From the NCBI GenBank assembly GCA_015232565.1, contig JADFZK010000001.1, positions 77,160-141,159 on the forward strand: a stretch of 64,000 nucleotides of DNA, in the 5' to 3' direction. This stretch comes from Candidatus Omnitrophota bacterium. Lineage in GTDB: Bacteria > Omnitrophota > Gorgyraeia > Zapsychrales > Fredricksoniimonadaceae. Position 1 is the first letter of the stretch; every line of letters starts with the position of its first letter. Positions 10,170 through 30,677 of the stretch are shown here, one piece after another. A program made the position numbers and the translations under genes. A model generated the notes under the pieces. That model ran no database searches. It was not told the DNA's origin and was given only the letters and a program-made list of their open reading frames with translations.

Positions 10170-11802
10170 GGATCGTTGGATAGTCTTAACGGGGATTGTA
10201 GTTCTGCTGTCTTTTGCGATTGCCTGGGCTTGCCTGGCCGGGAGATTGACTCTTTGGTCCGATGAGCTTCCGCCTGTTCAAGCGGCTAAAGGTCTTTGGT
10301 TGACGGGCAAGCCTTTTTTGTATGATTTGGATATGGGTACGATAGGGGATAAACCCTATACACATGGGTACCCGATGTCCTTTCTGGGACAGTTTGTCTA
10401 CCGGGCGCTGGGTCACCCAAGTCTTTTTTGGTTTCGGGTTATTCCACTTTCTTTCGGGCTTGTGACCATTGTTTTCTTTTTGTTGTTCTTGAGATTCAGC
10501 GGCCTGGTGAACAGAGTGAAATTGTGGTTGTTGATTGCTTTGTTCTTCTCTTGCGCTATCGTTTTTGATAATTTGCTGTTTTACCGTTATTACACCCTGA
10601 TAGGGTTGTGCGCTTTGCTCAATCTGGTGGCTTTTTGGTATGGAGCGGCGGCGATCAAGGCTAGGTGTTGGTTGAAGGCGTTAATGTGGGCCCTTTTATT
10701 TATTGCCGCTTTTATTTATCCATTGGCCGGTCATTTGCAGATTGTCCATTGCGTGATTATTCCTGTGGCTGGGATTATATTGGCGTTCGGGTCCTCCGGC
10801 AGGTTGCGGGAATGGATCGTCTGTAGGCGAAAGATTCTGGTGTTTTTGGCGGCAGGCGCCGTCATTTTGTGGCCGCTCATTGTTTACGTGTGTGATCTTG
10901 GGCTTGCGCGTGTTGATGTCGGCGGAGGGGCGGTCTCCAGGACCTACATGACTATTTGGGATAATCTGTTCGGACTCGCACGGTTCGGTCTGGCCTTGAA
11001 TATTGTGATCCTGGCGGCAGTCTGGTGGGTTCGTGACAGGCAGGACAAGGCCCTGAATTTGGAAACGTTTTTGTGTTTGACCGGTGTTATTTCGGGATTA
11101 TTGATTGGATTCTGTAATCCGCATCATATGATCTTTCTGGCAAGATACTATTATGTTTCTGCCATGCTGGCTGTCCTTGGGGCTCCTGCGATACTGTTGG
11201 AAATGTGTCGTAATGGCCGCAAATTGGGCTGGTTGCTGGGGATGTTTCTTGTTATAAATTTTGCGTTAATTGCGGTGACAATGACACTGGAGCGTGACAA
11301 TATTGATCGTGCGGTCTCTTGGGTTGAGCAGAATCTGAGGCCAGATGATACGCTTTTATGCGGCCTGATCGAGTTTGAAGTTCATGGCGGGACAAACTTG
11401 GTTGGGCGTGCCCACCGTGTTGAGGCGTCCGAAGACATCCGGTCGGTGTCTCGTTTGCGGGCATTCCTTGAAGGGCAACCGTCGACCAGGGTTCTTTTGA
11501 TTTATGTTGACGCGTATCATCCTCGGGACACGCTTTATCATTGGACAACAGGTGAAAGTCGAGATCCGGTTTCTTCATTGGATGTATTTATGAGGATCAA
11601 GGCGGTTGGGAAGGATGCAGCTTATGGTCTTCGTAATTGTGGCGTGAGGGAATTTGACAGGCTGGCGCTGATTGATCAATTGCGCACGTTGGAGAAAACT
11701 GGGTTTGAGGCCCATTTTAAGGGCCTGGAAAAGCGTTGGGCCAAAAGGATATTTCAACATCTAAAGTTGTGGATCCAGGGGCGCTTCAACGGAGCACAAT
11801 GA
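10162..11802 (+). CDS. Multi-pass membrane GT-C-type glycosyltransferase (ArnT/PMT, GT39/GT83-like).
   Basis: It has more than 10 predicted TM helices. The first extracytoplasmic loop carries the acidic motif RLTLWSDELPPVQAAKGLWLTGKPF typical of the ArnT/PMT family. It has a large soluble C-terminal domain. Confidence 0.55.
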   Translation: MNRDRWIVLTGIVVLLSFAIAWACLAGRLTLWSDELPPVQAAKGLWLTGKPFLYDLDMGTIGDKPYTHGYPMSFLGQFVYRALGHPSLFWFRVIPLSFGLVTIVFFLLFLRFSGLVNRVKLWLLIALFFSCAIVFDNLLFYRYYTLIGLCALLNLVAFWYGAAAIKARCWLKALMWALLFIAAFIYPLAGHLQIVHCVIIPVAGIILAFGSSGRLREWIVCRRKILVFLAAGAVILWPLIVYVCDLGLARVDVGGGAVSRTYMTIWDNLFGLARFGLALNIVILAAVWWVRDRQDKALNLETFLCLTGVISGLLIGFCNPHHMIFLARYYYVSAMLAVLGAPAILLEMCRNGRKLGWLLGMFLVINFALIAVTMTLERDNIDRAVSWVEQNLRPDDTLLCGLIEFEVHGGTNLVGRAHRVEASEDIRSVSRLRAFLEGQPSTRVLLIYVDAYHPRDTLYHWTTGESRDPVSSLDVFMRIKAVGKDAAYGLRNCGVREFDRLALIDQLRTLEKTGFEAHFKGLEKRWAKRIFQHLKLWIQGRFNGAQ

Positions 11803-13336: not shown

Positions 13337-15172
13337 ATGTTGAAACAGTGGTCAAGTTATTTCTGCCTTGCCATGATCGGGGGCGCTTGTGTTCTTTATG
13401 CGCTGTTTGGTTCGTCCTTTGCTGAGATGCATACTCAGTTCGCTTTTCTGGACTTTCCCGTCTTTATCGGGGAATGGTTGATGATCGTTTGTTGGTGCGT
13501 GCTCATCGGTCAGATTCTTATGGAGCCTGTCCGTTGGAGTAGTTGGCGCATATTGATTTTATGCTATCTTTTTTGGGTGATGGTTAAGATGGCTGAGGGC
13601 TATATTCAGTACGGTCCTTATGCTTTGCGAAATGCGGCGTTGTTTTACTATCCTGTTCTTTCAATTATGGTGGTTCATTTTCTGCGTAGAGTCAGGTTTG
13701 GAGATGGTTTGCGAGTTGTGTTTCTTGTAACTTTATTGTACATGATTTCTTGTCTTCCTGTTCAGGCAAGTGCCCAATATGCCTGTTTGATGGGGGGCTT
13801 CTTTGTGGCGGCCGCGTTGTCCCGTTGCTGGCTTCGCAATATTTTTTTCATTCTTCTTATCTTTCTCTTTTTTATGCGTATCGTTTTGTTGAGTACCGGA
13901 CGCGGCTGTTTTACAGGCGCTTTAGTTGGTGTGTTATTTCTAGCGTGGTATAGCGTTCAGGTTTTGCGGCTTTCTGTCTGGAAACAGCTGTGCGGGATAG
14001 TGGTTTTAAGTGTATTTCTGGGTATAAGCTTATGGATGTGGGGAGACAGGAACGCGTTGCTTTCTTTGATCACGCCATGGAGAATTACCGAGAATTATCA
14101 TCTTTATGTAAGTCAAATTGAAAAGAAACGAATGGGTTTTGTTCCGCGGCAGTTAAAGGCAAAGACATACCATGAGAATCTGTCCAGGGTTGATCTCGCT
14201 AAGATTGATTCAGTCAAGACATTGTCTCAGACGCCGGTTATTGTGCATGATGTAATTACCCCTCAAGCTGTTGATCCAGAGCTGGCAGTGAAAGGGCCGG
14301 TTGCTGGGCAGTCTTCGTCAGCGGTTGCGGTTGTTGCGCCTGAAGTTATTGCCAGTCAAGCTGTCAATCAAAAGTCGGCAGTGAAGGGTCAGGTCGCTGG
14401 GAAGTCTTCATTAGCGGTTGCGGTTGTTGCGCCTGAAGTTATGGCCAGTCAAGCCGTCAATCAAAAGTCGGCAGTGAAGGGTCAGGTCGCTGGGAAGTCT
14501 TCATTAGCGGTTGCGGTTGTTGCGCCTGAAGTTATGGCCAGTCAAGCCGTCAAACAAAAACCGTCAGTTAAGTCGCGGGGTGTTGTTCGGCCTTCATCAT
14601 CGGTAATTGCTCCTGCAGTTATGGCTAAGCAGGTAGTTAATACTGAGTTCTCTGTTGACAATGAGATGTCGGGACAATTCGCACAGAGTGCAATTAATAA
14701 TTTTCGAGATCTGGACGCTGCTTATGGTAATGGCGTCTTTCGGCTCCTCATTTGGAAGGATATGCTTCATGAGCTTTTGAAGTATCGGCCTTTGTTTGGG
14801 TTTAGTTTTGGTTGGCCGCAACGATCACCGTCGCTTGAGATTTTGCGCATGGGAGAGGTCGATTGGTTACGGGACGGCTGGATTACGCCGCATAATGTTT
14901 CTTTACATTTGATCTATCGTGGCGGTATTGTTGGTCTGGCAATGATCGCTATGGTTTTGTTCTTTATTGCCCGTATGACGCATGATTTTATACGGGCACG
15001 TTCCTGGCGGGGCGGGGTGCTGGTGAGCGCTTTAATCTCTTGGATTATCATTGCGCAGTTCGGGGTGATCCTCGAATTACCATATAATGCGATTCCGTTT
15101 TGGACTTTATTTGGCGTTGTTGTGGCTTATCGTAATCGGTTGTTGGAAGGGGCTTTGGGTGAGGAAGGATGA
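13337..15172 (+). CDS. O-antigen ligase/polymerase-like (Wzy_C) polytopic membrane protein carrying an internal Ala/Val-rich tandem-repeat loop.
   Basis: It has multiple N-terminal TM helices. The C-terminal PHNVSLHLIYRGGIVGLAMIAM matches the Wzy_C HN..L...E.G..G signature. A 31-aa repeat (ASQAVNQKSAVKGQVAGKSSLAVAVVAPEVM) occurs about three times in the middle. Confidence 0.6.
   Translation: MLKQWSSYFCLAMIGGACVLYALFGSSFAEMHTQFAFLDFPVFIGEWLMIVCWCVLIGQILMEPVRWSSWRILILCYLFWVMVKMAEGYIQYGPYALRNAALFYYPVLSIMVVHFLRRVRFGDGLRVVFLVTLLYMISCLPVQASAQYACLMGGFFVAAALSRCWLRNIFFILLIFLFFMRIVLLSTGRGCFTGALVGVLFLAWYSVQVLRLSVWKQLCGIVVLSVFLGISLWMWGDRNALLSLITPWRITENYHLYVSQIEKKRMGFVPRQLKAKTYHENLSRVDLAKIDSVKTLSQTPVIVHDVITPQAVDPELAVKGPVAGQSSSAVAVVAPEVIASQAVNQKSAVKGQVAGKSSLAVAVVAPEVMASQAVNQKSAVKGQVAGKSSLAVAVVAPEVMASQAVKQKPSVKSRGVVRPSSSVIAPAVMAKQVVNTEFSVDNEMSGQFAQSAINNFRDLDAAYGNGVFRLLIWKDMLHELLKYRPLFGFSFGWPQRSPSLEILRMGEVDWLRDGWITPHNVSLHLIYRGGIVGLAMIAMVLFFIARMTHDFIRARSWRGGVLVSALISWIIIAQFGVILELPYNAIPFWTLFGVVVAYRNRLLEGALGEEG
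14256..14640. repeat. 93-bp in-frame tandem repeat array of about 3.5 units. The two central units are about 97% identical.
   Basis: Units at 14339-14431 and 14432-14524 differ at only 2-3 nt. Degenerate units flank them on both sides (14256-14338 and 14525-14640). Confidence 0.9.
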
Positions 15173-17800: not shown

Positions 17801-18896
17801 AGTTTTGGTGTGCGGGGTTCTGCCGCCGCCTTTTTTTGGCCACAGTGTGATCTACCAGATGCTGATGGCTTCCTCTTTTCCTGCCAATGTCCGGGTGCGG
17901 TTTTTAAATATGCATTTCTGGTCTTATCAGACTAACAAGAAGGTTACCGGCCAGAAGCTTGTAAAGATGGTTAAGTATTATCTTCAGTATGTCGCCGCAA
18001 TTGTTTTTTGGCGGCCGCGCTATGTGCTCTATAACAGCAGTTTTTATCGTATGCCGTTCTGGAAGGATTTTTTGTTTTGTGCTACGGGGATCGCGCTTGG
18101 GCGTCGGGTCGTGTTTCATGATCTGGGTCAGTATGTGCGAGAATTGCATGATGGTTTGCCGGTCTTTCAGCGTGCGCTGTTGCGCTGGATGTTGCGTCAT
18201 TCAGCGGGCAGTATCGTTATGGGTGAAAGTGTGCGGGCAACCTACAAAGGGCTAATGAATAATGAAAAGATATTTGTTGTGCCTGGCGTAGTTGAAGATA
18301 CGAAGACTTTCGCTGTTGTGCCTAACCGCCCGGCAGGCTGGTTGTTAAATGTGCTTTATTTTTCGCATATGAGCCGTCCCAAGGGGATATATGTCGCTTT
18401 TGAGGCGGCGGCCAGGATCTTGCGTGTCCGTAGGGATGTGGCGGTAACCTTTGCCGGTCCACTTGAGGATGATGAGGTTGCGCGCAAACTGGACGAATTA
18501 CAGCAGGCTTACCCTGGGAGGGTGCGTTATCTGGGTTACGTTGATGACGCTCGTGAACGCACAGCCATATTTCGCGGGGCTGACGTATTCATGTTTACAA
18601 CCTTGAGAGATGTTTTCGGGTTGGTCCTTCTGCATGCCATGGCCGAGGGTTTGCCCATAGTGGCTTCTGATGAAGGAACTATTCCCGAGATCCTGCTCGA
18701 CGAAGGTCATGGGCTTTTGTTTGCGAAGGGAGAGGCTTCGGAGCTTGTTGCGAAGATCCTTTGGTTGGCAGAGAATGAGGTTCACCGGAAAACCATGGGC
18801 GTAGCCAATCGGAAACGGTTCGAGGAAGTTTACAGCCTGGAACAATATGGCGCGATTATGACAAATATATTCAGAACTCTGGATGTTTGCACGTGA
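17769..18896 (+). CDS. Glycosyltransferase family 1 (GT4, retaining).
   Basis: The C-terminal domain has the EGLPIVASDEGTIPEIL (E-x7-E-like) motif. The start is assigned to the ATG at 17769 and is uncertain. Confidence 0.65.
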   Translation: MNIMSKSLQPKVLVCGVLPPPFFGHSVIYQMLMASSFPANVRVRFLNMHFWSYQTNKKVTGQKLVKMVKYYLQYVAAIVFWRPRYVLYNSSFYRMPFWKDFLFCATGIALGRRVVFHDLGQYVRELHDGLPVFQRALLRWMLRHSAGSIVMGESVRATYKGLMNNEKIFVVPGVVEDTKTFAVVPNRPAGWLLNVLYFSHMSRPKGIYVAFEAAARILRVRRDVAVTFAGPLEDDEVARKLDELQQAYPGRVRYLGYVDDARERTAIFRGADVFMFTTLRDVFGLVLLHAMAEGLPIVASDEGTIPEILLDEGHGLLFAKGEASELVAKILWLAENEVHRKTMGVANRKRFEEVYSLEQYGAIMTNIFRTLDVCT

Positions 18897-20040
18897 GATG
18901 TTACGATTTGAAAGGGAAAATGTGGACTTTTTGACTTTTTTTAGAGGGATGAAGAGATTTCGTATTCCATTAATTGTTACGTTAATTTCCGCTTATGCTT
19001 TTTATTTGCGATTGGTCCATTTAGCCGGTCATGACCTTTGGGTTGATGAGCTTTATCAAATCAGCCAGATGAATGGGACTTTCTTTCAGATGGTCCAAGG
19101 GCTTACCCGGAGTGAATATTGCGCTTATTTGTCTGCGGACTATTATCTTACGTATCCCTTTTATAAGATTTTCTCGATGAATAAGTGGGGGCTTGCCATT
19201 CCACATATGGGGGCAACCCTTCTTGGGTTTTATTTGCTTTATTTAATCTGTCGGCGTTATTTAAAGAGTGTATTGGGCTATGTTGTTACGTTCAGCATTG
19301 TGTGTTTTAACGCTACCTTGATCTGGCATGCTACAGAGATCAGGACGTACGCGGTTCTGCCCACGGTGGCATTGGCTTCTTTATATCTTTGGTTGAGGAT
19401 AATTGACGCGAATGGTTATTTGAGCATGGGGAAGAAAGTTGTCGCGGGAGTTGTGTTCGTTTTTATACTGTGGTTCCATGTTTATGGGATAGTGATGTTC
19501 TTTTTCACAGGACTTTATGCCTTGTTGACAAGGGTGAAGGATAAGTCATTCTTTATTATTCTAAAGAATGTTGCTCCTTTCGTGTTGGTGGTTCTTTGTT
19601 TGGCCGCGCCTTTGTGGCTATTGAGCACGTTCGGTCCGCATCTTGCCAATCCCACCAGTAATAACGATACGTTTCAATTTATCCCAAGTCCTTCCAGGGA
19701 TATGATCGGATTTCTTAAAGGCGTTTTCGGCAATCTTATCGGCGACAAAAGGCTTTATTTTTTGCTTCTGGGGGGTGTGGCGCCATTCGTTATTCCGTAC
19801 AGGCAGAGGTTTCATCAGATCATTTTCCTGATAGTGCTGGTGGTGGTGCCTGTGGGGACGATATTGTCAGGAAATATTCTTACGCACTACTGGTTTCTTC
19901 AACGGGGATTTATATGGGTGATGCCTATCTTCGCTTTGTTCATTGGGTGGTCCCTGGAGTCTTTTGTATTGTATGTGAAGGATAAATGCCAGTCTTCTGG
20001 GCAACGGATCGCCAGGAACTCGGACCTGAGAATTGAATAG
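18883..20040 (+). CDS. Polytopic membrane protein, possibly a GT-C-like glycosyltransferase.
   Basis: It has about 10 TM helices and a first-loop acidic motif HDLWVDELYQISQ. Its GC content is lower than that of its neighbours. Confidence 0.4.
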   Translation: MFAREMLRFERENVDFLTFFRGMKRFRIPLIVTLISAYAFYLRLVHLAGHDLWVDELYQISQMNGTFFQMVQGLTRSEYCAYLSADYYLTYPFYKIFSMNKWGLAIPHMGATLLGFYLLYLICRRYLKSVLGYVVTFSIVCFNATLIWHATEIRTYAVLPTVALASLYLWLRIIDANGYLSMGKKVVAGVVFVFILWFHVYGIVMFFFTGLYALLTRVKDKSFFIILKNVAPFVLVVLCLAAPLWLLSTFGPHLANPTSNNDTFQFIPSPSRDMIGFLKGVFGNLIGDKRLYFLLLGGVAPFVIPYRQRFHQIIFLIVLVVVPVGTILSGNILTHYWFLQRGFIWVMPIFALFIGWSLESFVLYVKDKCQSSGQRIARNSDLRIE

Positions 20041-20048
20041 GAGCGATA

Positions 20049-21158
20049 ATGGCTGTTAATATTAGAAAGCTTACAACGTTTGCCCGATTCGCAATAATTA
20101 AGGCGGCCCCTTTTTTGTGGCCTGTTATGGCACTTCGTCCGTATTCTGCGACGATCAATATTACGGATAATTGCTGCCTTAAGTGTGTGATGTGTAATCA
20201 ATGGCAGACGTATCATAAAGATGAGCTGAGCAAGGATGAGTGGATGCGGATTCTGGGTGAGTTGTATGTCTGCGGGGTGCGGGAGATCAATTTGACTGGT
20301 GGTGAACCGTTGTGCCGATCCGATATTTTCGAGATCATTGCCGAGGCCGTTCGATTGGGGATCAAGGTCGGTGTGTCCTCAAATGGTGATATGATCGATG
20401 ATGAGATGGCAGATCAATTGCTCAGGTTAGGGGTTAAGGATATTACTATATCGGTTGATGCGATAGGGCTCGAGTATGACCGTTTACGCGGGGTTAAAGG
20501 GGCGTACCAAAGGGTTTATCGGGCTTTGGAGATACTGTCTGCCTATAACCGGGACCGGAGGATGTCGGTGCTGGTGGCATTTGTTTTGATGAAAGACACG
20601 TTGACTTCCTATAAGGAAGTGGTGAACGCTGTTAGCCCTCTGGGCATTCCTGTTGTTGTTAATTTGTTTGATACGAGTCCGTATTTCTTTCAGATCAAGG
20701 GAGCTAGGGAGAGGTTTTGGGTGACGGAAAAAGAGATGTCGCGGTTGGCGGACTTGCAACAGTTTTTTGTTGAGCAAATCCAGATAGCTTCGGTGTTCAC
20801 CAAGCATCGTTTTGTGGACATTGATTTCTTTAAACGCTATTTTCGGGATCCACTACAGAAGGATCTTCCTTGTTATGTTTCCCAAATTCGTTTGAACATA
20901 GGTCCTAAAGGGCAGATCTTTGGCGGATGTTGGTCTTTGGGTGTTCATGGCGATTTACGCAAGAATCGGCTTCAGGAGATACTCAAGTCCAAGGCTTATC
21001 GTGCGATCCAGCAGAAAATGTTCAATAAGCAGTGCCCGGGGTGTTCGTGTGGCTATATTACAACGTTAAATTATTCTTTAGGTAATTGGGTAAAGGAACT
21101 TGTTTATCGTGCTTTTCCATCGGCACGGAGGGGAATTTATGCTGGTGTCAAAAAATAA
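20049..21158 (+). CDS. Radical SAM enzyme with a Cys-rich C-terminal (SPASM/twitch-like) region.
   Basis: It has NITDNCCLKCVMCNQW, a CxxxCxxC motif with an extra Cys. Additional Cys residues lie near the C-terminus (NKQCPGCSCGY). Confidence 0.6.
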   Translation: MAVNIRKLTTFARFAIIKAAPFLWPVMALRPYSATINITDNCCLKCVMCNQWQTYHKDELSKDEWMRILGELYVCGVREINLTGGEPLCRSDIFEIIAEAVRLGIKVGVSSNGDMIDDEMADQLLRLGVKDITISVDAIGLEYDRLRGVKGAYQRVYRALEILSAYNRDRRMSVLVAFVLMKDTLTSYKEVVNAVSPLGIPVVVNLFDTSPYFFQIKGARERFWVTEKEMSRLADLQQFFVEQIQIASVFTKHRFVDIDFFKRYFRDPLQKDLPCYVSQIRLNIGPKGQIFGGCWSLGVHGDLRKNRLQEILKSKAYRAIQQKMFNKQCPGCSCGYITTLNYSLGNWVKELVYRAFPSARRGIYAGVKK

Positions 21159-21277: not shown

Positions 21278-22222
21278 ATGTGGAGAATGATGCGATCACT
21301 TGAAATAAAGCCGCATGGACTTATGTTCCATCATTTTTATAACGAGAAGCATTGCCGGGGGCAGGGGGCTATATCTATTGGCCAGTTTGAGGCTGTCCTG
21401 ACTCATTACGAGAAGCACATCCTTTCGGCTGAGGAGTGGTTTAATAGGGCGGTGAGCAACTCGTTAAAGGATCATGATATTTGCTTGACCTTTGATGATG
21501 CGTTATTGTGCCAGTATGAGGTTGCACTTCCGGTGTTGGAGCGGTATGGTTTGACCGCGTTCTGGTTTGTTTATTCCTCCGTGCTGGACGGAGGTTTGGA
21601 GAAACTAGAGATCTACCGGAAATTCAGGACAGTGTGTTATGCATGTATTGATGACTTTTATTTGGATTTCTTCTCGCGGGTGAAGGCTTCGGCTTATAAT
21701 GACGCAGTGGAGTTGGCGTTAAAAGGATATGCACATGACAATTGGAAGTATTGTCCGTTTTATTCTCCTAATGACACAAAGTTCAGGTATATAAGAGATG
21801 TTGCTTTGGGTGTTGATAAGTACCAGGAACTTATGGACAGGATGATTTGCGAACAAGGGATAGATTTGGCTTCTTTTGCTTCTGATCTGTGGATGACGAA
21901 AGAACATGTTAGGAGTTTGTGTGCACGCGGGCATGTCATAGGGTTACATTCGCATACTCATCCGACTGTTCTGGCTGATCTGCCCGCGACCGAACAGCAA
22001 AAAGAATATGGACAGAATTACCGGTTTCTTAGAGATCTTCTTGGTAAAAGCCCGGAAGTGGTCTCGCATCCTTGTAATTCTTATAATGTGGAGACTTTGA
22101 AGATCCTGGCTGCGCTTGGTATTCGGTTGGGGTTTCGGGCTAACATGGCAGATCATCAATATTCAAGGTTTGAATTCGCGCGGGAAGATCACGCGAATGT
22201 GATCCGGAGGATCGGGCAATGA
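21278..22222 (+). CDS. Polysaccharide deacetylase family (NodB-homology) protein; possible de-N-acetylase or deformylase.
   Basis: It has ICLTFDDALLCQYEVALPVLERYGLTAFWF, the NodB motif 1 (TFDD), followed by His-containing motifs HSHTHP. Confidence 0.7.
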   Translation: MWRMMRSLEIKPHGLMFHHFYNEKHCRGQGAISIGQFEAVLTHYEKHILSAEEWFNRAVSNSLKDHDICLTFDDALLCQYEVALPVLERYGLTAFWFVYSSVLDGGLEKLEIYRKFRTVCYACIDDFYLDFFSRVKASAYNDAVELALKGYAHDNWKYCPFYSPNDTKFRYIRDVALGVDKYQELMDRMICEQGIDLASFASDLWMTKEHVRSLCARGHVIGLHSHTHPTVLADLPATEQQKEYGQNYRFLRDLLGKSPEVVSHPCNSYNVETLKILAALGIRLGFRANMADHQYSRFEFAREDHANVIRRIGQ

Positions 22223-23013
22223 AAGTAACCGTGTTTACTAGTAATCAGCCTAGGCATATCGCGCTCATTCATCGTTTGGCGACGGTTGCCGATGAAGTCT
22301 TTGCAGTTTTGGAATGTAATACTGTTTTTCCGGGACAGGTTCAGGATTTCTTTAAACGAACCAATGTTATGCAGGAATATTTTAGGCATGTGATCGAAGC
22401 GGAGAGGATGGTTTTCGGGTCCCTGGACTTTTTGCCGTCAAATGTAAGGTCTTTATCTTTGAGGTCTGGAGACTTGAGCTTGCTGGACATGAGCGCACTT
22501 GTAGCGGCGTTCCAAAGTGATTATTATATTGTTTTCGGGAGCAGTTATATCAGGAACGAGCTTGCTGATTTTTTGGTAGAGCATCAGGCGATTAATATTC
22601 ATATGGGTGTGTCACCTTATTATCGTGGAAATAGTTGTAATTTCTGGGCGCTTTATGACCGGAAGCCGGATTATGTGGGGGCGACGATCCATTTGCTGTC
22701 CAAGGGGCTGGATTCTGGCGCTATGCTGTTTCATGCTGTTCCCGCGGAGCAGGCAGTGGATCCCTTCGAGTTGGGCATGTTGGCGGTTCGGGCCGCGCAG
22801 AATGGCTTGTTGCAAGCGTTAAAGACGGGAGAGTTACTGAAGATGGTGCCCGTGCTTCAGGACAAGAGTCTCCAGATTAGGTATACTCGTAATAGCGATT
22901 TTAATGACGATGTTGCTTCCGGCTATTTAAGAAGCTTGCCGGGGAAGAATGACATTGGCCGTGCGTTAAGAGACCGGGATGTGGGATTGTTGTTGCGGCC
23001 TTATATTGAATAG
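22219..23013 (+). CDS. Formyltransferase-family protein (N-terminal Fmt/ArnA-N/PurN-like catalytic domain only).
   Basis: NIHMGVSPYYRGNSCNFWALYDRKPDYVGATIHLLSKGLDSGAML aligns closely with the Fmt core HGSLLPRWRGAAPIQRSL ... GVTIMQMDVGLDTGDML. Confidence 0.7.
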   Translation: MKVTVFTSNQPRHIALIHRLATVADEVFAVLECNTVFPGQVQDFFKRTNVMQEYFRHVIEAERMVFGSLDFLPSNVRSLSLRSGDLSLLDMSALVAAFQSDYYIVFGSSYIRNELADFLVEHQAINIHMGVSPYYRGNSCNFWALYDRKPDYVGATIHLLSKGLDSGAMLFHAVPAEQAVDPFELGMLAVRAAQNGLLQALKTGELLKMVPVLQDKSLQIRYTRNSDFNDDVASGYLRSLPGKNDIGRALRDRDVGLLLRPYIE

Positions 23014-23055
23014 AGTTCGTTTCTGGATCAGGCGTACAAGATAAGGAGAGGAATA

Positions 23056-25068
23056 ATGAACGTAGCTTTATTGGATCTCAACCATTTTACCCGCGGCGTG
23101 ACGAATAACACGGTGCCTCTTGGTCTGGGTATGATAGCCGCCTTTTTACGCAAACGGATCGGGGGTGCTCTGGACATCAGGATTTTCAAGGATACCAGCA
23201 AGGCCCTGGGTGTGTTTGCATCCTGGACTCCTGACGTGATCGGTCTTGCGCAGTATGTCTGGAACAGTGAACTCAATTTGTCCGTTGCCCGCATTGTTAA
23301 AGACAGGAATCCGCGTTGTTTTGTCGTCGTTGGTGGCCCTAACCTGGATTTGTCTGCGGCCCGGCGGATGCAGTATTTTATTGACCACCCGTTAGTGGAT
23401 GCCGGGATCCTTTATGATGGGGAGATCCCTTTTGCCGGGCTGGTTGGGAGGCTTATGGCCGGGGAGTCGCGGGAAAGCATCTGCCTGACCCCTTCGGCTG
23501 GTATGTACTCGTTTGACAGGAAAGAGAATGCTTTGCGGGAATCAGCCGAACCGCCGCCGCGTCTTTCCAGTCTTGACGAGATAGGGGCGATCTATGCCGA
23601 GGGCGTTTTTGACGAGTTTCTGAATGTTGGCTGTCATCCATTTCTGCAAACACATCGCGGGTGTCCTTTTACGTGTACGTTTTGCCATACTAGCGATTCC
23701 TATTATTCTCGGATGCTTTTTCTTTCCCCTGAGATATTTCGGCGTGAGATGGAGTGCCTGGGTAAACGCTATGCTGGCCGGCATGACGTGACCCTTTTTC
23801 TGGCCAACACGAATATGTCGCTTTTCCCGGAAGATTTTACGATCGCCGGGATCATTCGCGAGACTCAGGAGAAATACGATTGGCCGCGCAACATCAGCGT
23901 TAATTCGGGCAAAGATCCCAAGAAGTTGCTGGCAATGATGGATATACTCCGTTTTCAACCATCGATCGCACTTCAGACTTTGACGCCAGCTGTCCTGAAA
24001 AATATTAAAAGAATTAATATTCCTTTTGATAATTTTGTGTCTTTTCAGCGCGCAGTCCTTAAAGAGACCGGTGCCCCGTCGGTTACCGAATTGATCTTGT
24101 GTCTTCCAGGAGAGACCCGGGCCAGCTTTCTTGAAACGTTGTGCAGGGTGCTTAATTCCGGGGTTCAGTCGGTAGTGATCTATACGCTCATGTCGCTTAA
24201 AGGGACGGAACTGGTTTCGGAAGAGAGCATCCGTAAATATCGTTTCGATATTCGCCACAGGGTTGTTCCCCGGCAGTTTAGCGTTGTGTCTGGCCGGAAA
24301 GTTCTTGACACCGAGGCGGTTGTCGTAGCGACGGATACGATGTCCTTCGGAGATTATTTGGAATTACGGGGATTGTGTTTTACTGTGACCACGTTTTATA
24401 GTTCCCTTGAGTTGATGCCTATCAAGAAATTGCTCTTGGAAAGCGGTGTGGATGTTTCAGCTTGGGTGCTGGGCATTCACGCGCGATGTGCTCAGTTTCC
24501 TGATCTTGCGTATTATCATGATGAATTTATCAAGGAGACCCAGGCTGAACTATTTTTAACCCGGGAAGCGCTGACGGACTTTTTTGAGGATCCCCGGCAT
24601 TGGGAGGATCTGTGCCAGGGGCTTTACGGGGATAACCTTACGCGTAAGTATAAACAGTTGGTATTGACGAAATGTTATAAGACGCTGCTGGAAGTTGCTT
24701 TGTCCGAGGCAAGGGATTTGCTAGCCGCGAAGCTCCTGCCTGATATGCTCGAAGATCTTTTGCGTGATCTTAGGTCTTATTTGTCGGTCAGGGACGTACG
24801 GGACATTTTTGAAGGGACTTTGTCCCTTGAAGACAGGGTTGTAACTGTTGCGTATAATATTCCGTTATGGATGATGAACTCCAATCCCGCTCTTGGAATG
24901 AACGATTTTCGGGGCAGGACTTCATACCGGGTGATTTATCCTGTTGATATAAAGGAGAAAGCCCAGGAATTCGCGAGGTCGAATAAAGACAAGGAGTTGT
25001 CGTTGCAGATCATGTATCGCGATGGACTTATCAGTGATTTCTGGCCAAGATGGATTGAGAGCAAATGA
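23056..25068 (+). CDS. Large cobalamin (B12)-binding radical SAM enzyme (670 aa).
   Basis: An N-terminal B12-binding-like domain (VIGLAQYVWNSELN ... FVVVGGPNLD) is followed by HRGCPFTCTFCHTS (CxxxCxxC) and a long C-terminal extension. Confidence 0.7.
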   Translation: MNVALLDLNHFTRGVTNNTVPLGLGMIAAFLRKRIGGALDIRIFKDTSKALGVFASWTPDVIGLAQYVWNSELNLSVARIVKDRNPRCFVVVGGPNLDLSAARRMQYFIDHPLVDAGILYDGEIPFAGLVGRLMAGESRESICLTPSAGMYSFDRKENALRESAEPPPRLSSLDEIGAIYAEGVFDEFLNVGCHPFLQTHRGCPFTCTFCHTSDSYYSRMLFLSPEIFRREMECLGKRYAGRHDVTLFLANTNMSLFPEDFTIAGIIRETQEKYDWPRNISVNSGKDPKKLLAMMDILRFQPSIALQTLTPAVLKNIKRINIPFDNFVSFQRAVLKETGAPSVTELILCLPGETRASFLETLCRVLNSGVQSVVIYTLMSLKGTELVSEESIRKYRFDIRHRVVPRQFSVVSGRKVLDTEAVVVATDTMSFGDYLELRGLCFTVTTFYSSLELMPIKKLLLESGVDVSAWVLGIHARCAQFPDLAYYHDEFIKETQAELFLTREALTDFFEDPRHWEDLCQGLYGDNLTRKYKQLVLTKCYKTLLEVALSEARDLLAAKLLPDMLEDLLRDLRSYLSVRDVRDIFEGTLSLEDRVVTVAYNIPLWMMNSNPALGMNDFRGRTSYRVIYPVDIKEKAQEFARSNKDKELSLQIMYRDGLISDFWPRWIESK

Positions 25069-25280
25069 CATTAATATCTGTAAGCCTCAAAAAGAAAGAA
25101 GTGGTTCGTTGAAGTCGATTGTTTGATGCCTGTTGGCACGATATTGGCTGGAAATAGGTCTGGGATTCTTTGATCTCGAGAAATATCTGCCCTGATCGTA
25201 AGACGGCGTAGTTTCGCCGGCAAGTTTGTTAAGTGATCAACGAAGAAGCTGTTTGCACAATCTAATGTAATGAGGTGTTC

Positions 25281-26711
25281 ATGTTGAAGATTGGTAAGTT
25301 CTCTGTGTCGTGGATCATCTTTAGCGTTATTCTGGTTTCTTTATGTTACCGTATCTATTTGGCATGCACTACGAATATGATCATTTGCTGGGATTCTTTG
25401 GAATATCGGGACTTGGGGCGCTTGCTTCAGAATAATGACTTCCTGTCTTATTTTAAGGGAGGCCCTAGGCGGGAACCGATTTATCCTGTTTTGGTGTCGG
25501 TGGCGATGCATATGGAGTCGTGGAGTGGAATTGTTTACACCAGGATTCTGGCCGGTATCGGGGTAGGGATACTTTTTATTACACAGGTGTTGATGTACAT
25601 TGTTTTGCGTAAACTTAATGTCCGCATCTGGATTTGCGCGTTCATTCTTTTATATTTTGGTTTTTCACCAGCGATAAACAATACTGCTTTCAGCTTATAT
25701 TCAGAGATCTCAGTCCTGCCGTGGACGTTATTAAGCGCCTTGTTGATCGCGAAATCTTTTGAGACCATTATATCAAAGAATATTGTGCGAAGTTTCTTTG
25801 CGGGGGCGGGGATCGGATCGCTTTTTGTGATTATGACAATGATCAAGGCTCCTTTTGAGCTTGTTTTCTTCGTTTTTGTGGGGCTTTATTTTGTGCTGCT
25901 GTTGCGGGCGTTCATACAAAAGAACAGGCCTGTTATCATAAAAGCACTTGTTTTTATCTTTACACTTTGTTTGGTGTATGAAGTCCCGGTTACCGCTTAC
26001 AAAATGTTAAACAAAGTTTTCAATAATAATTACGCTCTTACCGGAAGAGGTAGTTGGGCACTTTATGGCGGCGTTGCGCTTAAGACCGAGCCTATGACAG
26101 CCAGGAAGATATTGACTGCAATTGCGCATATTCCTGGTAATGGTGCCTGTATGCGTTTCTTTTCCGAGGAAGAATGTACTTATTGGGAAGCATTTTCTGC
26201 CAGTGATGGTTTTGGGTTAGGAAAGTATGGCCAGGTTAGTTCTACAACGCCAGCGGCCGATGTTGACAGGGTTATTTTGGGAGATTGCAAAAAAAGGATC
26301 CTGGAGCATCCTTTTCAGTATGTTTTCATGTCCAGTTTCGATTGGATAAAAATGTTTTTTTGGGAATCGACCAAGATAGGGTTCGTTGAATATCCGCCCT
26401 GGCTGGAAACATTGTATAATAAGACGATTTTTAAAGATGGTTTGCGTTTATTGGTGTCTCTAGGGTCTTTAATAGCTTTCATCATATTGTTGCTTTCTAT
26501 TAGAAATCCAGTAAAGTTGACTGATTCGCAATGTCCGGCCACTAAAGAGCAATATTTGCGTTTTACAATTTTCGTTATCTTATTGTTCTACACTGGTTTA
26601 CATTCGATGTTTAATACAGTAACGCGGTGGGCATTGCCTCTGGCTCCATTGTATCTTGTTTGCGTGGGTTACGCTTTGCAACTCTTGTGGCCAAAGCCTC
26701 GGAGCAAGTGA
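25281..26711 (+). CDS. Polytopic membrane GT-C-like glycosyltransferase (ArnT/PMT-like).
   Basis: It has about 11 TM helices and an N-terminal loop ICWDSLEYRDLGRLL carrying an acidic motif. Its GC content is low. The ATG at 25281 is preferred because of the TGAGGTG ribosome-binding site. Confidence 0.5.
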   Translation: MLKIGKFSVSWIIFSVILVSLCYRIYLACTTNMIICWDSLEYRDLGRLLQNNDFLSYFKGGPRREPIYPVLVSVAMHMESWSGIVYTRILAGIGVGILFITQVLMYIVLRKLNVRIWICAFILLYFGFSPAINNTAFSLYSEISVLPWTLLSALLIAKSFETIISKNIVRSFFAGAGIGSLFVIMTMIKAPFELVFFVFVGLYFVLLLRAFIQKNRPVIIKALVFIFTLCLVYEVPVTAYKMLNKVFNNNYALTGRGSWALYGGVALKTEPMTARKILTAIAHIPGNGACMRFFSEEECTYWEAFSASDGFGLGKYGQVSSTTPAADVDRVILGDCKKRILEHPFQYVFMSSFDWIKMFFWESTKIGFVEYPPWLETLYNKTIFKDGLRLLVSLGSLIAFIILLLSIRNPVKLTDSQCPATKEQYLRFTIFVILLFYTGLHSMFNTVTRWALPLAPLYLVCVGYALQLLWPKPRSK

Positions 26712-26742: not shown

Positions 26743-27504
26743 ATGATCCATTTCATCTTCCCCGTTTATAACGAAAAAGCCAATTTGCCGGAATTGATCG
26801 CGGGTATTCGCCGCCTTATGGCTGGCAAGGCTTACCGCATGGTGGCGGTCAATGACGGCTCTACCGACGGCTCGCTGGAATTCCTGAAAGAACAGCAAGG
26901 TGTGGATCTGGTAATTACCGGTTCGGTCATCAATATGAATGTCGGGGCGGTATTCTCCTCCGGGATCCATGAAGCGCTTAAGGGTGCCAAAGACGATGAT
27001 GTGATCGTCATTATGGAAAGTGACCAGACCAGTGAGCAAGAACTGGTCCTGCCGATGGCTGAGAGCATCGGCCTTGGAACTGCCGACATTGTTATAGCCT
27101 CGCGCTATGTTTCGGGAGGGAGATATGTTAATTTTCCTTTGCCGCGAGTGATCTTTAGCCATTGCGCCAATCGCCTTATGCGGGCTTTTTTCCCGGTTGC
27201 TTCAGTGCGTGATTACACAATATTCTTCCGGGCCTATCGGGCGGGCATCCTTAAGCGAGCCTCGGATTATTTCGGTCCGTTCGGCCTGATCCAGTCCAAA
27301 GGGTTTGTGGCCAACGCGGAACTCCTGGTAAAGCTGGCTTTCTTTACCGACCGTATTATGGAGGTTCCGTTCGTTTATAATTACGGCATGAAAAAAGGCG
27401 CCAGCAAGATCAACGTTCTGCGCACGATCAATGAGTACTTTACTCTGATAAATTATTTGAAACGCCTTATTTCGAAACATAGTGCTCTCGGGAGAAGAAT
27501 ATGA
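26743..27504 (+). CDS. GT2 polyprenyl-phosphate sugar synthase (Dpm1/ArnC/GtrB-like).
   Basis: It has IHFIFPVYNEKANLPELI and VAVNDGSTDGS, and is short (253 aa) with no TM anchor in the N-terminal half. This is typical of Dpm1-like GT2 enzymes that load sugars onto polyprenyl phosphate. Confidence 0.7.
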   Translation: MIHFIFPVYNEKANLPELIAGIRRLMAGKAYRMVAVNDGSTDGSLEFLKEQQGVDLVITGSVINMNVGAVFSSGIHEALKGAKDDDVIVIMESDQTSEQELVLPMAESIGLGTADIVIASRYVSGGRYVNFPLPRVIFSHCANRLMRAFFPVASVRDYTIFFRAYRAGILKRASDYFGPFGLIQSKGFVANAELLVKLAFFTDRIMEVPFVYNYGMKKGASKINVLRTINEYFTLINYLKRLISKHSALGRRI

Positions 27505-28538
27505 AGATCTTGATCACCGGCGGCGCCGGAATGGTGGGTTCGCACGCGGCGGAACATTTTGCCGGGCAGGGCAATCAGGTTCTGGTGTACGACAATCTTC
27601 TGCGTTCGCAGATCTTTGGGGTGGATACGCAGTCGGTCGAATTTAACTGGAAATATTTACAACGCTTCAAGAATATCAAGCTGGTCAAGGCCGATATCCG
27701 TGACCGGAAAACATTGGAAGCGACCTTACGGAAGTTCAAGCCCGATGCTGTTATTCATGCCGCGGGCCAGCCGGGTGTGGGGTTCTCCCTTAACGATCCT
27801 TGTGAAGACGCTTCCATTAATGCCACAGGTACACTGAACGTGGTCGAAGCTTTGCGTCAGGTTAACTCCAAAGCCGCGCTGGTTTACTGTTCCACAAATA
27901 AAGTCTACGGTGATAATGTTAACCTTTATCCCATCAGCGAGAAGAAGACCCGTTACGCCTTTCGGAACATCAAGGGTGTGCCGGAAACCTGTTCTATCGA
28001 TCATTGCGGCCATACTCCATATGGTGTATCCAAACTTACCGGCGATCTTTACGCCCAGGATGCCGCACAGTCGTTCGGTTTGCGCACCGGTGTTTTTCGG
28101 ATGAGTTGTACCTATGGCACCCGGCAATTTGGTTTTGAAGATCAGGGCTGGATCGCCTGGTTTGCTATCCGTTTTATGCAGGGCCGGCCGATCACGATAT
28201 ATGGCGACGGCAAACAGGTGCGCGATGTTCTATGGGTCGGCGATCTGGTTAATGCTTTCGATAAGTTTATTACACAGAAAGCGCCTTCCGGGGTTTTCAA
28301 CATGGGCGGCGGAGCGGATAATACGCTGTCCTTGCTTGAATTGCTCGAGCTCCTGGAAAGCATTACCGGCCGTGCGGTCAAGATCGGTTTCGACGACTGG
28401 CGCAAGTTCGACCAGAAAGTTTATATTTCCGATATTGCCAAGGTAAAGCGCGCGCTTAAATGGAAGCCGACCGTAGGGCCTCGTGAAGGCGTAAGCCGCA
28501 TTGTGCGCTGGATCCAGGATAATAGCAGGATCTTTTGA
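27501..28538 (+). CDS. CDP-paratose 2-epimerase (tyvelose epimerase, RfbE)-family extended SDR.
   Basis: It has MKILITGGAGMVGSHAAEHF, YCSTNKVYGD, TYGTRQFGFEDQGWIAWF, YGDGKQVRDVLWVGDLV and NMGGGADNTLSLLELLELLE. These are collinear with characteristic tyvelose-epimerase blocks. Confidence 0.7.
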   Translation: MKILITGGAGMVGSHAAEHFAGQGNQVLVYDNLLRSQIFGVDTQSVEFNWKYLQRFKNIKLVKADIRDRKTLEATLRKFKPDAVIHAAGQPGVGFSLNDPCEDASINATGTLNVVEALRQVNSKAALVYCSTNKVYGDNVNLYPISEKKTRYAFRNIKGVPETCSIDHCGHTPYGVSKLTGDLYAQDAAQSFGLRTGVFRMSCTYGTRQFGFEDQGWIAWFAIRFMQGRPITIYGDGKQVRDVLWVGDLVNAFDKFITQKAPSGVFNMGGGADNTLSLLELLELLESITGRAVKIGFDDWRKFDQKVYISDIAKVKRALKWKPTVGPREGVSRIVRWIQDNSRIF

Positions 28539-28566: not shown

Positions 28567-30081
28567 ATGAAAAGAGTTACCTGGTTGATCTTCCTTTCAG
28601 CTTTTCTTTTGCTTCGTCCATATAACTTCTCTACCACCGGACAAATGTATTCCGGTGATGATTGGTCTTATTTTGCGCATGCGTCCGCGTTGGCGTTTGG
28701 AGAATTCCCCTCTTATAGCAAGGAGTCCTGGATGACCGGAGAGGGTGTTCCGTCTCATTCGGTAGGTGCCGGAGTCCTGGCGGCCCCTTTTGTTTATCTG
28801 TTTTCGCGGTTAGATTTGCTAAATGGTAACGATATTGTTTCGGAACGAAAGCCGAACAACATTCCGGGTAGTTGGGCTTTATTCGGATTTGTGGTGGCGA
28901 GTTCAGTGTATTTCTGGTTAGCGTGTTTATTTCTTTTTCTTTCAGCTCGAATGTTCGTTAGCAGCACTGCCGCTTCCTGGGCGGTTATCGGGATGGTGTT
29001 GGTACAAGGCGCCCCGCTGTTTATTTTTCGTCGTCCGGTTTTCTCTCATGTTTATGAGCTGGTGTTATTGGCTTTCCTGGTCTGGTTGTTTTGCCGGGTG
29101 AAACAGGCCGGCGCGGTGTTCGGCCGGGGCAGTATGTTGGTGGCCGGAATAGCCGGTGGCCTTCTTTCTTTAACCAGACTGGATGATCTGGGTTTTGTAT
29201 TAGGTTTTCAGATCTTGTTCGTGTGGCAAATGAAGGGGGCCGTTTATCGTAAAGCGTTGGCCTTAGGCCTGATGGTTTTCCTGGGAGCCTTGGTGGTGGC
29301 GGTATTTAAAGTCTGGCCGGAAATGCTGGTTGCGCATCATTCTTTACATGGTGTTGATAATTTGATGAAGCACCTTTCTGTTTTGGATTATATGCGCAGG
29401 TTGTGGCATATCATCGTCGGGCCCGATTGGGGTTTGGTGTTTACGGCGCCTTTTATTCTGGTAACTGTCGTATTTTTGTATACTTCGGCTAACAGTGTTC
29501 TCGTTCAGTTTAAATGGATAAGTGTTTTGTTATTGATCAAGCTTTGGGTAGTGATGCAGTGGATGACCCAGGGTGGTTGGTATGGCTATCGTTATTTGCT
29601 TTTGAGTGCGATGGCCTTGTTGACAGTGCCGTTTGCGGTATTTCTGGAAGAGAAGGTTCTGAAAGGGGCATTATGGCGGCGAGTGGCAGTTGTGTTGATC
29701 GCTTTACCGCCACTTTTGTCGATGTTGTTCTTTGAGGGTAATGCCGAGGGGTTGACCTTGCATATTGTCGAGCAATATTTTGCTGTTAGTGGATGGGGTA
29801 ATAATATATATCAGTGGGAGGTGTGGAGAGCCTTATTGTGGACGCCTTTGGAGGCTGTTATGGTTTTGTGCAAAGGGGGAGTCTTGTATTTTTTCTATCT
29901 GTTCTGCCAGGCATTTTCTCTGGACAGCGTATTGCCAATTATTGTGCGTGGTAAATATCCGTCTTTTCAATGGGTCGTGCTGGTTAAGACTATTCTGGTT
30001 TATGTTATTCCGTTCGTTTTGTTTCTTTTATGGCAAGCCAGCAACTTTAAGCCCGGACGCAAAGCCTGGTTGCAAGAATAG
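28567..30081 (+). CDS. Polytopic membrane protein (504 aa), possibly a GT-C-like glycosyltransferase or polymerase.
   Basis: It has more than 10 TM helices and an N-terminal loop YSGDDWSYFAHASALAFGEFP with a DD motif. No soluble domain was recognised. Confidence 0.45.
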   Translation: MKRVTWLIFLSAFLLLRPYNFSTTGQMYSGDDWSYFAHASALAFGEFPSYSKESWMTGEGVPSHSVGAGVLAAPFVYLFSRLDLLNGNDIVSERKPNNIPGSWALFGFVVASSVYFWLACLFLFLSARMFVSSTAASWAVIGMVLVQGAPLFIFRRPVFSHVYELVLLAFLVWLFCRVKQAGAVFGRGSMLVAGIAGGLLSLTRLDDLGFVLGFQILFVWQMKGAVYRKALALGLMVFLGALVVAVFKVWPEMLVAHHSLHGVDNLMKHLSVLDYMRRLWHIIVGPDWGLVFTAPFILVTVVFLYTSANSVLVQFKWISVLLLIKLWVVMQWMTQGGWYGYRYLLLSAMALLTVPFAVFLEEKVLKGALWRRVAVVLIALPPLLSMLFFEGNAEGLTLHIVEQYFAVSGWGNNIYQWEVWRALLWTPLEAVMVLCKGGVLYFFYLFCQAFSLDSVLPIIVRGKYPSFQWVVLVKTILVYVIPFVLFLLWQASNFKPGRKAWLQE

Positions 30082-30125: not shown

Positions 30126-30677
30126 TTAGGTGTGTTCCAGGATAAATAACTGGTTGGCGCCCCATAAAAAACGCTGATATGCGCCGATCTTAAGGCGGCA
30201 TTCTTTCGTTAATTGATCCATTGCTGCCCAATCAAGATATTGATGATGTTCTTCTGCTGCGGAGTGGTTAAAGAGGCCCAGGCAGGCGCCAGTTTCGTAA
30301 ATCTTCCTAAAGGCCGGATGTGGCGTTGTGATTATGATCTTTCCTTCAGGTTCCAGCTTGTCGGCCAGTTTATGCATAAAAGAGCCGGGGTCAGCCAGGT
30401 GTTCAATAACGGCCAGTAAAGCGATAGTCCTGAATTTTATGTTTGGGGGCAGTTCGGCCATCAGGTGGAAACAATGGCGCGGATGATCCTTTTTTGCGCA
30501 AGCGATGGCTTCGGGGTTGATATCTGTTCCGGTATAAGAATTGGGATCAAAATATTGGGCCAGATGGCCTTTGCCACAGCCAACGTCCAGTATGGCCGGA
30601 GCGAGAAAGGGTTTGGCGGTATGCAGCCGGATAAAGCGCAGATAACCGGATAGAGCCCCATCGGCCTGTTCATTCAT
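30126..30677 (-). CDS. Class I SAM-dependent methyltransferase.
   Basis: It has ILDVGCGKGHLAQYFD (motif I GxGxG) and IIITTP downstream. It is one of only two minus-strand genes in the window. Confidence 0.7.
   Translation of the reverse strand: MNEQADGALSGYLRFIRLHTAKPFLAPAILDVGCGKGHLAQYFDPNSYTGTDINPEAIACAKKDHPRHCFHLMAELPPNIKFRTIALLAVIEHLADPGSFMHKLADKLEPEGKIIITTPHPAFRKIYETGACLGLFNHSAAEEHHQYLDWAAMDQLTKECRLKIGAYQRFLWGANQLFILEHT

Follow-up and report, generated by a model that had tools for sequence, protein, structure and literature searches.

The gene at positions 23056..25068 (+ strand, stop codon included) of a 64,000-nucleotide stretch of contig JADFZK010000001.1 from a Candidatus Omnitrophota bacterium, hereafter the window, is an ATG-started open reading frame (ORF) for a protein of 670 amino acids (aa). 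By alignment and structure prediction, we show this protein to be a predicted cobalamin-dependent (class B) radical S-adenosylmethionine (SAM) enzyme with the three-domain architecture of the C-methylases TokK and CysS. Together with its setting among glycan genes, this suggests that it is probably a cobalamin-dependent radical C-methylase acting on a sugar precursor of a surface glycan, either an activated amino sugar or a nonulosonic acid. It belongs to a clade of TokK-type enzymes that is large, uncharacterised, and associated with glycans, and does not represent a new type of system. A sequence-only reading of the DNA had described a 670-aa radical SAM enzyme of the B12 type with a C-terminal extension of about 250 aa; the ORF proved exact, and searches of Pfam and NCBIfam found no model that covers the 244 aa from about residue 427 to residue 670. 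The parts of the protein on which the argument rests are the following.

23056..23610, + strand: N-terminal Rossmann-type cobalamin-binding domain, about residues 1-185 (boundary approximate, from the CysS domain definition; PMC12846815)
23260-23262, + strand: codon of W69, aligned with the lower-axial tryptophans of TokK (Trp76) and CysS (Trp75)
23623..24333, + strand: radical SAM partial TIM-barrel core, about residues 190-426 (PF04055; alignment to TokK and CysS)
23662-23685, + strand: [4Fe-4S] motif C203-x3-C207-x2-C210 (CxxxCxxC), invariant
24334..25065, + strand: mostly helical C-terminal domain, residues 427-670, apparently a diverged third (substrate-channel) domain of the TokK type

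TokK and CysS are each built from three domains, namely a Rossmann fold that binds cobalamin, a barrel of the radical SAM type, and a C-terminal domain that helps to form the substrate channel (for CysS, PMC12846815). When the 670-aa sequence was compared with those of solved structures using phmmer, TokK (681 aa) was matched with an E-value of 2.5e-30 and CysS (645 aa) with 3.8e-25; a profile built from 46 family sequences gave 4e-45 and 4e-37, respectively, in hmmsearch. The phmmer alignment to CysS reaches query residue 486, which lies in the first helices of the C-terminal domain. The full-length AlphaFold2 model, computed from 46 homologues, is confident throughout, with a predicted local distance difference test score (pLDDT) of 92.3 and a predicted template modelling score (pTM) of 0.91. 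Foldseek superposed this model on TokK and CysS at E-values of 1e-30 to 1e-33 over about 690-720 columns, with template modelling (TM) scores of 0.71-0.74 normalised to the query (TMq) and up to 0.77 normalised to the target (TMt), whereas the two-domain relatives TsrM, MgmA, and AprD4 were matched over just about 440-550 columns with a TMq of 0.39-0.45.

The individual cofactor sites agree with this architecture. The N-terminal domain aligns with and superposes on the Rossmann-type cobalamin domains of TokK and CysS, and the barrel has the partial (beta/alpha)6 TIM-barrel form, being matched to TokK, CysS, TsrM, MiaB, HemN, and viperin with a Foldseek probability of 1.00. Trp75 of CysS lies beneath the cobalt in a lower-axial role (PMC12846815), and its equivalent here, W69, was placed on TokK W76 and CysS W75 in the phmmer and hmmsearch alignments to 7kdx and 9n1b. 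W69, G93, G94, D121, and E123, along with the GGP and DGE loops, are invariant in the 46 homologues, as are the three cysteines of the radical SAM motif, C203, C207, and C210. No DxHxxG motif was found in residues 1-135 of the translation, in keeping with base-off/His-off binding of the cofactor. Pfam recognises the Radical_SAM domain (PF04055) at residues 199-362 with 42.5 bits (cutoff 29.5), but the B12-binding domain at residues 16-129 scores 29.5 bits, slightly under its cutoff of 32.1. Because of this, the B12 assignment rests mainly on the full-length structural match to TokK and CysS and on the conserved lower-axial tryptophan.

TokK from Streptomyces tokunonensis (PDB 7KDX/7KDY), a C-methylase of carbapenem biosynthesis, is the best match in both sequence and structure (Foldseek E 4e-33, TM 0.71-0.74, about 690 columns). 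It is of nearly the same length, has its domains in the same order, and carries the tryptophan under the cobalt as well as the CxxxCxxC motif. However, the two proteins share only about 22% identity, and their C-terminal domains are only remotely homologous, having diverged past direct detection. CysS from Corallococcus sp. (PDB 9N1B-D), an iterative cobalamin-dependent radical SAM methylase of cystobactamid biosynthesis, has domain limits of 1-185, 186-432, and 433-630 and superposes with TM 0.72-0.77 over 706-721 columns, but is only 18-20% identical. The differences extend to the substrate site. Where TokK has its substrate-binding R280, the protein has S281 (family consensus N), and W188 and W271 of CysS, which serve in substrate contact and gating, correspond to G192/H194 and S281. 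TokK acts on a pantetheinylated carbapenam and belongs to an antibiotic gene cluster, and the substrate of CysS is pantetheinylated 3-methoxy-4-aminobenzoate, whereas the 670-aa family occurs in surface-glycan loci. In short, the protein has neither the substrate-contact residues of TokK and CysS nor a context pointing to a pantetheinylated natural-product substrate. The nearest NCBIfam model is NF033712, the KedN5 family of methylcobalamin-dependent radical SAM C-methyltransferases, which matches residues 18-389 (E 2.7e-35). This match covers profile positions 14-390 of 624, ends before the C-terminal domain, and at 121.7 bits falls far below the curated cutoff of 700, so that the protein is not a KedN5-family member by NCBI's measure. 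As this cutoff is missed, and both the substrate residues and the genomic setting differ, we consider that the enzyme would work like TokK and CysS yet is not their orthologue.

The C-terminal domain is the part that the sequence-only reading could not assign. This holds true for Pfam and NCBIfam, but the domain is not without relatives, as full-length Foldseek and profile comparison both point to remote homology with the third domain of TokK. Structure prediction followed by a structural search, the check that had been proposed, gave a confident model (pLDDT 90.6 for residues 427-670 modelled separately). The search with the isolated domain was blank, its best match in the PDB having an E-value of 0.26 and TokK and CysS being absent, while the search with the full-length model found both. 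As residues 1-426 alone could give a TMq of at most 0.64 (426/670), the observed 0.71-0.74 is not attainable from the first two domains. A hidden Markov model of the C-terminal domain retrieved only spurious coiled-coil matches when searched against PDB sequences with hmmsearch, and direct comparison by hhalign with a TokK-like clade gave a probability of just 0.7-2%. This clade comprises 26 proteins that are 45-61% identical to the TokK core and were found by a search with a TokK fragment, among whose matches TokK was absent; their C-terminal sequences served as a proxy for TokK's own.

Bridging profiles gave a different result. A genome-contig scan with the full-length alignment returned, among the matches listed, only distant relatives of at most 32% identity, and from these we took a sister clade of 650-780-aa proteins that are 28-32% identical to the query. 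The C-terminal domains of the family and the sister clade matched each other in hhalign with 99.7% probability (E 4.5e-26), and those of the sister clade and the TokK-like clade with 85% (E 6e-6), collinearly over 212 columns. Merged profiles raised the match to the TokK-like clade to 88% (E 3e-6), and a deep profile containing 52 more diverse full-length matches from a representative library gave 96.0% (E 4e-9) over 227 columns, spanning the domain in full. Reversed-sequence controls stayed at 0.1-0.5% in every bridged or deep comparison (0.2% beside the 96% result). Together with the full-length superposition, these results support the view that residues 427-670 are homologous to the TokK-type third domain, though strongly diverged, and are no new fold. 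That they form an independent novel domain instead, unrelated to TokK and serving, for example, in partner docking or regulation, would explain the empty domain-only Foldseek search, the negative PDB-sequence and direct hhalign comparisons, and the lack of a Pfam model. However, we regard this as improbable, as the superposition on TokK and CysS passes through the domain and exceeds the two-domain ceiling, the bridged and deep matches are significant, collinear, and of whole-domain length where the reversed controls fail, and the domain keeps a constant position in proteins of equal size.

By analogy with its role in the substrate channel of TokK and CysS, this diverged third domain would be the substrate-specificity domain of the enzyme. 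It did not turn out to be a common radical SAM accessory domain with an established non-glycan function, and a specificity domain of the TokK type says nothing against a role in glycan synthesis. It carries two family-specific motifs, GDNLxRKYK (residues 525-533) and LSLQIxYRDG (648-657), and its invariant or nearly invariant residues include the basic R438, R530, K531, K533, R579, and R655, which, judged from conservation, would suit an anionic ligand. The family-specific domain is carried by 670 representatives of 50%-identity clusters at E <= 1e-3, 390 of them at E <= 1e-10, and in the full-length matches it occupies about residues 425-680 of 650-720-aa proteins. The single exception (P0261 in the representative library) is a 1247-aa protein with the domain at residues 452-664, implying a fusion to about 580 further downstream residues. 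The domain is also shared by the sister clade (L007-L018; hhalign 99.7-100%), whose members, at 28-32% overall identity, come from Rhizobiaceae, Flavobacteriales, Gemmatimonadota, Desulfuromonadales, Acidobacteriota, and Reyranella metagenome-assembled genomes (MAGs).

By analogy with TokK and CysS, a first SAM would methylate cob(I)alamin, and cleavage of a second at the [4Fe-4S] cluster would yield a 5'-deoxyadenosyl radical. This radical would abstract a hydrogen from the substrate at an unactivated sp3 carbon, and the resulting substrate radical would take the methyl group from methylcobalamin. Iterative methylation, as carried out by TokK and CysS, would be possible. The changed barrel residues together with the diverged C-terminal domain would give the enzyme its new specificity, and a substrate different from those of TokK and CysS fits both the altered contact residues and the divergence of the third domain. 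Sugars are known substrates of such chemistry: the GenK, GntE/GenD1, Fms7, and MoeK5 group acts on them in the aminoglycosides and moenomycin, and Fom3 uses a CMP-linked substrate. These enzymes, which we compared by description only, set a precedent for class B C-methylation of sugars but are set apart by their secondary-metabolite pathways. All of them are listed as cobalamin-dependent radical SAM Csp3-methylases (PMC12931638).

The same fold and cofactors could nevertheless serve a sugar-type substrate without methyl transfer, in carbon-sulfur or carbon-carbon bond formation, ring contraction or rearrangement, dehydration, or epimerisation. B12-dependent radical SAM enzymes with other transformations do exist, namely ThnL, OxsB, BchE, and HpnJ (PMC12931638), and OxsB and AprD4 are among the Foldseek matches of our full-length model. 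Moreover, conventional SAM methyltransferases are already present in the loci (30126-30677 in the window; Methyltransf_21/23 in L005 and L151), and radical SAM enzymes of the SPASM type and of the smaller B12 type stand alongside, which suggests a multi-step radical pathway. We nonetheless consider such an activity unlikely, since both solved structures that combine three domains with a lower-axial tryptophan, by far the best matches, are C-methylases, and since the top NCBIfam model also describes methylcobalamin-dependent C-methyltransferases. C-methylation remains the activity that we favour.

As to the substrate, we turned to the family at large. More than 120 full-length homologues with 47-60% identity to the 670-aa protein were found, in sources named as Omnitrophota, Candidatus Scalindua, Promethearchaeota (Asgard), Nanoarchaeota, and Falkowbacteria (Candidate Phyla Radiation, CPR). 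The family loci collected number 69, of which 63 came from a metagenome scan using the family-specific C-terminal motifs and alignment and six from protein look-ups, with three further look-ups later; their ORFs were clustered, and cluster representatives were annotated. Flanks of at least 8 kb are available for 35 loci, a few of which are near-duplicates; 24 of the 35 hold NeuB, NeuC, or CTP_transf_3 and 27 hold some marker of the nonulosonic-acid pathway, the family at large thus being co-located with genes of the NeuB, NeuC, and CMP-sugar cytidylyltransferase types. The recurrent neighbours are listed here with the number of family loci.

Short-chain dehydrogenase/reductase (SDR) epimerases/dehydratases: 30 loci
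CTP_transf_3 cytidylyltransferases: 18 loci, and 7 of a second type
Radical SAM/SPASM proteins: 15 loci
NeuC-type hydrolysing 2-epimerase: 15 loci
GFO/IDH/MocA oxidoreductase: 15 loci
WbuX N-acetyl-sugar amidotransferase: 14 loci, median distance 704 bp
Hexapeptide acetyltransferase: 12 loci
CBS-nucleotidyltransferase: 12 loci
NeuB-type synthase: 11 loci
Family 2 glycosyltransferase (GT2): 10 loci, median distance 87 bp
adh_short: 10 loci
GSU2086-family protein: 8 loci, median distance 92 bp
Sulfotransferase: 7 loci

In the locus of the closest homologue (L150, 60% identity), the gene overlaps the upstream GFO gene and the downstream CTP_transf_3 gene by 4 bp each, and the latter is followed by adh_short, NeuB, NeuC, a PglD-like acetyltransferase, a CBS-nucleotidyltransferase, and a HisF/HisH-like pair, a gene set which we take to resemble the Campylobacter ptm/leg legionaminic-acid cluster. 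From the gene context, the substrate class would be an activated amino sugar or nonulosonic acid, or an N-acyl or acetimidoyl side chain, destined for a cell-surface glycan; for most family members, this would be a sugar of the legionaminic or pseudaminic type. The genome context of homologues, which the sequence-only reading had asked for, is thus consistently one of sugar and glycan biosynthesis, mostly with nonulosonic-acid pathway genes.

The close structural relatives that have been characterised all use pantetheinylated natural-product intermediates as substrates, and in one locus (L004) the family gene adjoins the lipid A genes LpxK and Lip_A_acyltrans, where a lipid substrate is conceivable. 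A non-sugar substrate (lipid, peptide, or small-molecule natural product), with the glycan-gene neighbourhood being incidental, seems a poor prospect all the same: 11 of 11 Pfam-annotated contexts are sugar-nucleotide or glycan loci, as are most of the 63 loci from the metagenome scan, and none of those 11 contexts contained genes for polyketide synthases, nonribosomal peptide synthetases, carrier proteins, or precursors of ribosomally synthesized and post-translationally modified peptides (RiPPs). Furthermore, some copies overlap a CMP-sugar synthetase gene, and the residues by which TokK and CysS bind their pantetheinylated substrates are unconserved. A sugar substrate therefore remains the preferred reading.

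Several further features of these loci were observed. In the Scalindua-type loci (L001/L002, L098-L101, L112), a GSU2086-family protein (NF052581, function unknown) is encoded directly downstream of the family gene, an arrangement counted in 8 loci, and in most of these it is followed by heptose-like genes of the cytidylyltransferase, PfkB, and SIS types and by a radical SAM/SPASM gene. The locus of a 59%-identical homologue (L151) encodes at 3461-6094, just upstream of the family gene, an 877-aa fusion of B12-binding, Radical_SAM, and DUF2334 domains, adjoining a 533-aa B12-dependent radical SAM protein. Up to three or four radical SAM genes in one glycan locus were also seen in L150.

The window gene is part of a glycan locus of about 37 kb (560-37203) with co-directional genes. 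Encoded there are sugar nucleotidyltransferases, several SDR dehydratases/epimerases, transferases of the GT2 and GT4 families, a hexapeptide acyltransferase and a sulfotransferase, a split transketolase pair, a transferase of the WecG type, a Bac_transf priming transferase, a GDP-mannose dehydratase (Gmd), and a Wzy_C ligase/polymerase. The nearest neighbours of the gene are listed below.

20049..21158, + strand: radical SAM/SPASM protein, 369 aa (Pfam Radical_SAM and SPASM)
21278..22222, + strand: polysaccharide deacetylase family protein, 314 aa (Pfam Polysacc_deac_1, 66.7 bits)
22219..23013, + strand: formyltransferase-like protein, 264 aa (Pfam Formyl_trans_N, 31.3 bits; weak NCBIfam match to dTDP-4-amino-4,6-dideoxyglucose formyltransferase)
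25275..26711, + strand: strongly hydrophobic 478-aa protein without a Pfam or NCBIfam match (hydrophobicity from the translation)
26743-27504, + strand: GT2 glycosyltransferase (Pfam)
27501-28538, + strand: NAD-dependent sugar epimerase/dehydratase (Pfam)

The family gene begins 43 bp downstream of the formyltransferase-like gene, which itself overlaps the deacetylase gene by 4 bp, all on the same strand, so that the immediate adjacency to this pair is as had been described. The start of the gene is taken to be correct because the alignment of homologues begins at residue 1; a Shine-Dalgarno-like AGGAG, read from the sequence, stands at 23044..23048 (+), 7 nt 5' of the ATG. A scan for promoters and terminators around the gene found sites no commoner than in shuffled sequence and is therefore uninformative on operon boundaries. 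The protein itself is 100% identical to a GenBank protein of a Candidatus Omnitrophica MAG.

We considered whether the adjacent pair is a conserved partner in function and rejected this. Among the clustered ORFs of the other family loci, nothing corresponds to the formyltransferase, and the deacetylase type shares its cluster with a protein of just one such locus. A looser association of the family gene with deacetylase-type proteins does recur across loci: other types adjoin it in L005/L096, where a Polysacc_deac_1 gene overlaps its 3' end, and occur nearby in L004 and L122, and the DUF2334 fusion just upstream in L151 is a further instance. The suggestion that the enzyme is a candidate sugar-modifying activity is thus supported by the sugar and glycan genes that surround it in the window and its homologues in more than 60 other loci, but the adjacency from which it started is specific to this locus, and the link shared by the family is that with nonulosonic-acid genes.

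The window locus does not share that link, and the copies in L151 and L004 are likewise without nonulosonic-acid genes. A tblastn search of the window with the NeuB, NeuC, CTP_transf_3, WbuX, GFO, and GSU2086 proteins of the family loci found nothing at E <= 1e-5, and the radical SAM/SPASM protein at 20049-21158 is only distantly similar to the recurrent radical SAM/SPASM cluster (tblastn E 4e-9). The locus is O-antigen-like, and the window copy, being without nonulosonic-acid genes, is atypical for its family; its substrate would be a component of an O-antigen-like polysaccharide.

A number of points weigh against the interpretation as a glycan-directed C-methylase of the TokK type, among them the direct comparisons that failed for the C-terminal domain, and the use of proxy sequences for that of TokK. 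Cobalamin binding is inferred, with the Pfam B12-binding score below its cutoff. The residues with which TokK and CysS contact their substrates have changed, so that nothing on the substrate can be transferred from these enzymes. Methylation is the commonest but not the sole chemistry of this clade, ThnL being listed among the B12-dependent radical SAM enzymes with other or unknown transformations (PMC12931638). Finally, the absence of NeuB, NeuC, CTP_transf_3, WbuX, and GFO from the window means that the family-wide link to nonulosonic acids may not apply to the window copy.

To our knowledge, cobalamin-dependent radical SAM methylases come almost exclusively from antibiotic, cofactor, lipid, and RiPP pathways, and we know of class B radical SAM methylases acting on sugars only in secondary metabolism. 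Among the enzymes covered in a 2026 review, none is in surface-polysaccharide or nonulosonic-acid biosynthesis (PMC12931638). Our literature search for B12-dependent radical SAM enzymes in O-antigen, nonulosonic or legionaminic acid biosynthesis, or in Omnitrophota found nothing relevant, although its coverage was incomplete and absence is unproven. A bolder proposal, which we put forward tentatively and hold with less conviction than the reading as a C-methylase of a surface-glycan sugar precursor, is that this is the first family of cobalamin-dependent radical SAM enzymes dedicated to cell-envelope glycan biosynthesis. Its members might place one or more C-methyl groups, possibly iteratively as ethyl or isopropyl, on legionaminic- or pseudaminic-type acids or on their acetyl or acetimidoyl side chains, and on another amino sugar in the Omnitrophota locus.

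If true, C-methylation predicts undescribed C-alkylated surface sugars in Omnitrophota, anammox bacteria, Asgard archaea, DPANN, and CPR, a class of modified sugars for mass-spectrometric surveys to look for, and structural enzymology would gain a TokK-type scaffold with a different, anionic, sugar-like substrate. The family is conserved across very distant uncultivated lineages and tied to nonulosonic-acid clusters. For genome annotation, the 'unassigned' 244 residues would be read as a diverged TokK-type substrate domain and not as a separate module.

The window encodes a second enzyme of the B12 type. The split transketolase-like pair (3156-3980 and 3973-4908) is followed by a 480-aa B12-dependent radical SAM protein (4908-6350) and then by a GT2 gene, a DUF4915 protein (7101-8291), and a sulfotransferase (8296-9222). 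The 480-aa protein had been said to have the same cofactor architecture as the 670-aa one. The two do share both Pfam domains, but they are only 24% identical over 167 residues and belong to different subfamilies; the smaller protein lacks a third domain of the TokK type, finds its best NCBIfam match in an HpnJ-like model, and is not a close paralogue. Elsewhere, the smaller type often accompanies the 670-aa family. In the Asgard locus (L003), a transketolase pair, a small B12-dependent radical SAM gene, and a sulfotransferase gene lie near the 670-aa family gene, and the transketolase pair is also present in Scalindua loci and on the P0003 contig. This suggests a recurrent toolkit for sugar branching or modification.

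Five large proteins of the glycan locus (10162-11802, 13337-15172, 18883-20040, 25275-26711, and 28567-30081; 385-611 aa) have no Pfam match, apart from a weak match of 18883-20040 to PMT_2. The translations of 18883-20040, 25275-26711, and 28567-30081 are strongly hydrophobic, and the five proteins may be GT-C-type transferases or polymerases. Over the whole window (1-64000), GC skew is uniformly and strongly positive (0.05-0.28 in each 2-kb window), and the + strand carries nearly all of the long ORFs, which fits a single replichore with extreme gene-strand bias. The window ends with two very long ORFs of the + strand, at 53125-56565 (1146 aa) and 56665-63303 (2212 aa).

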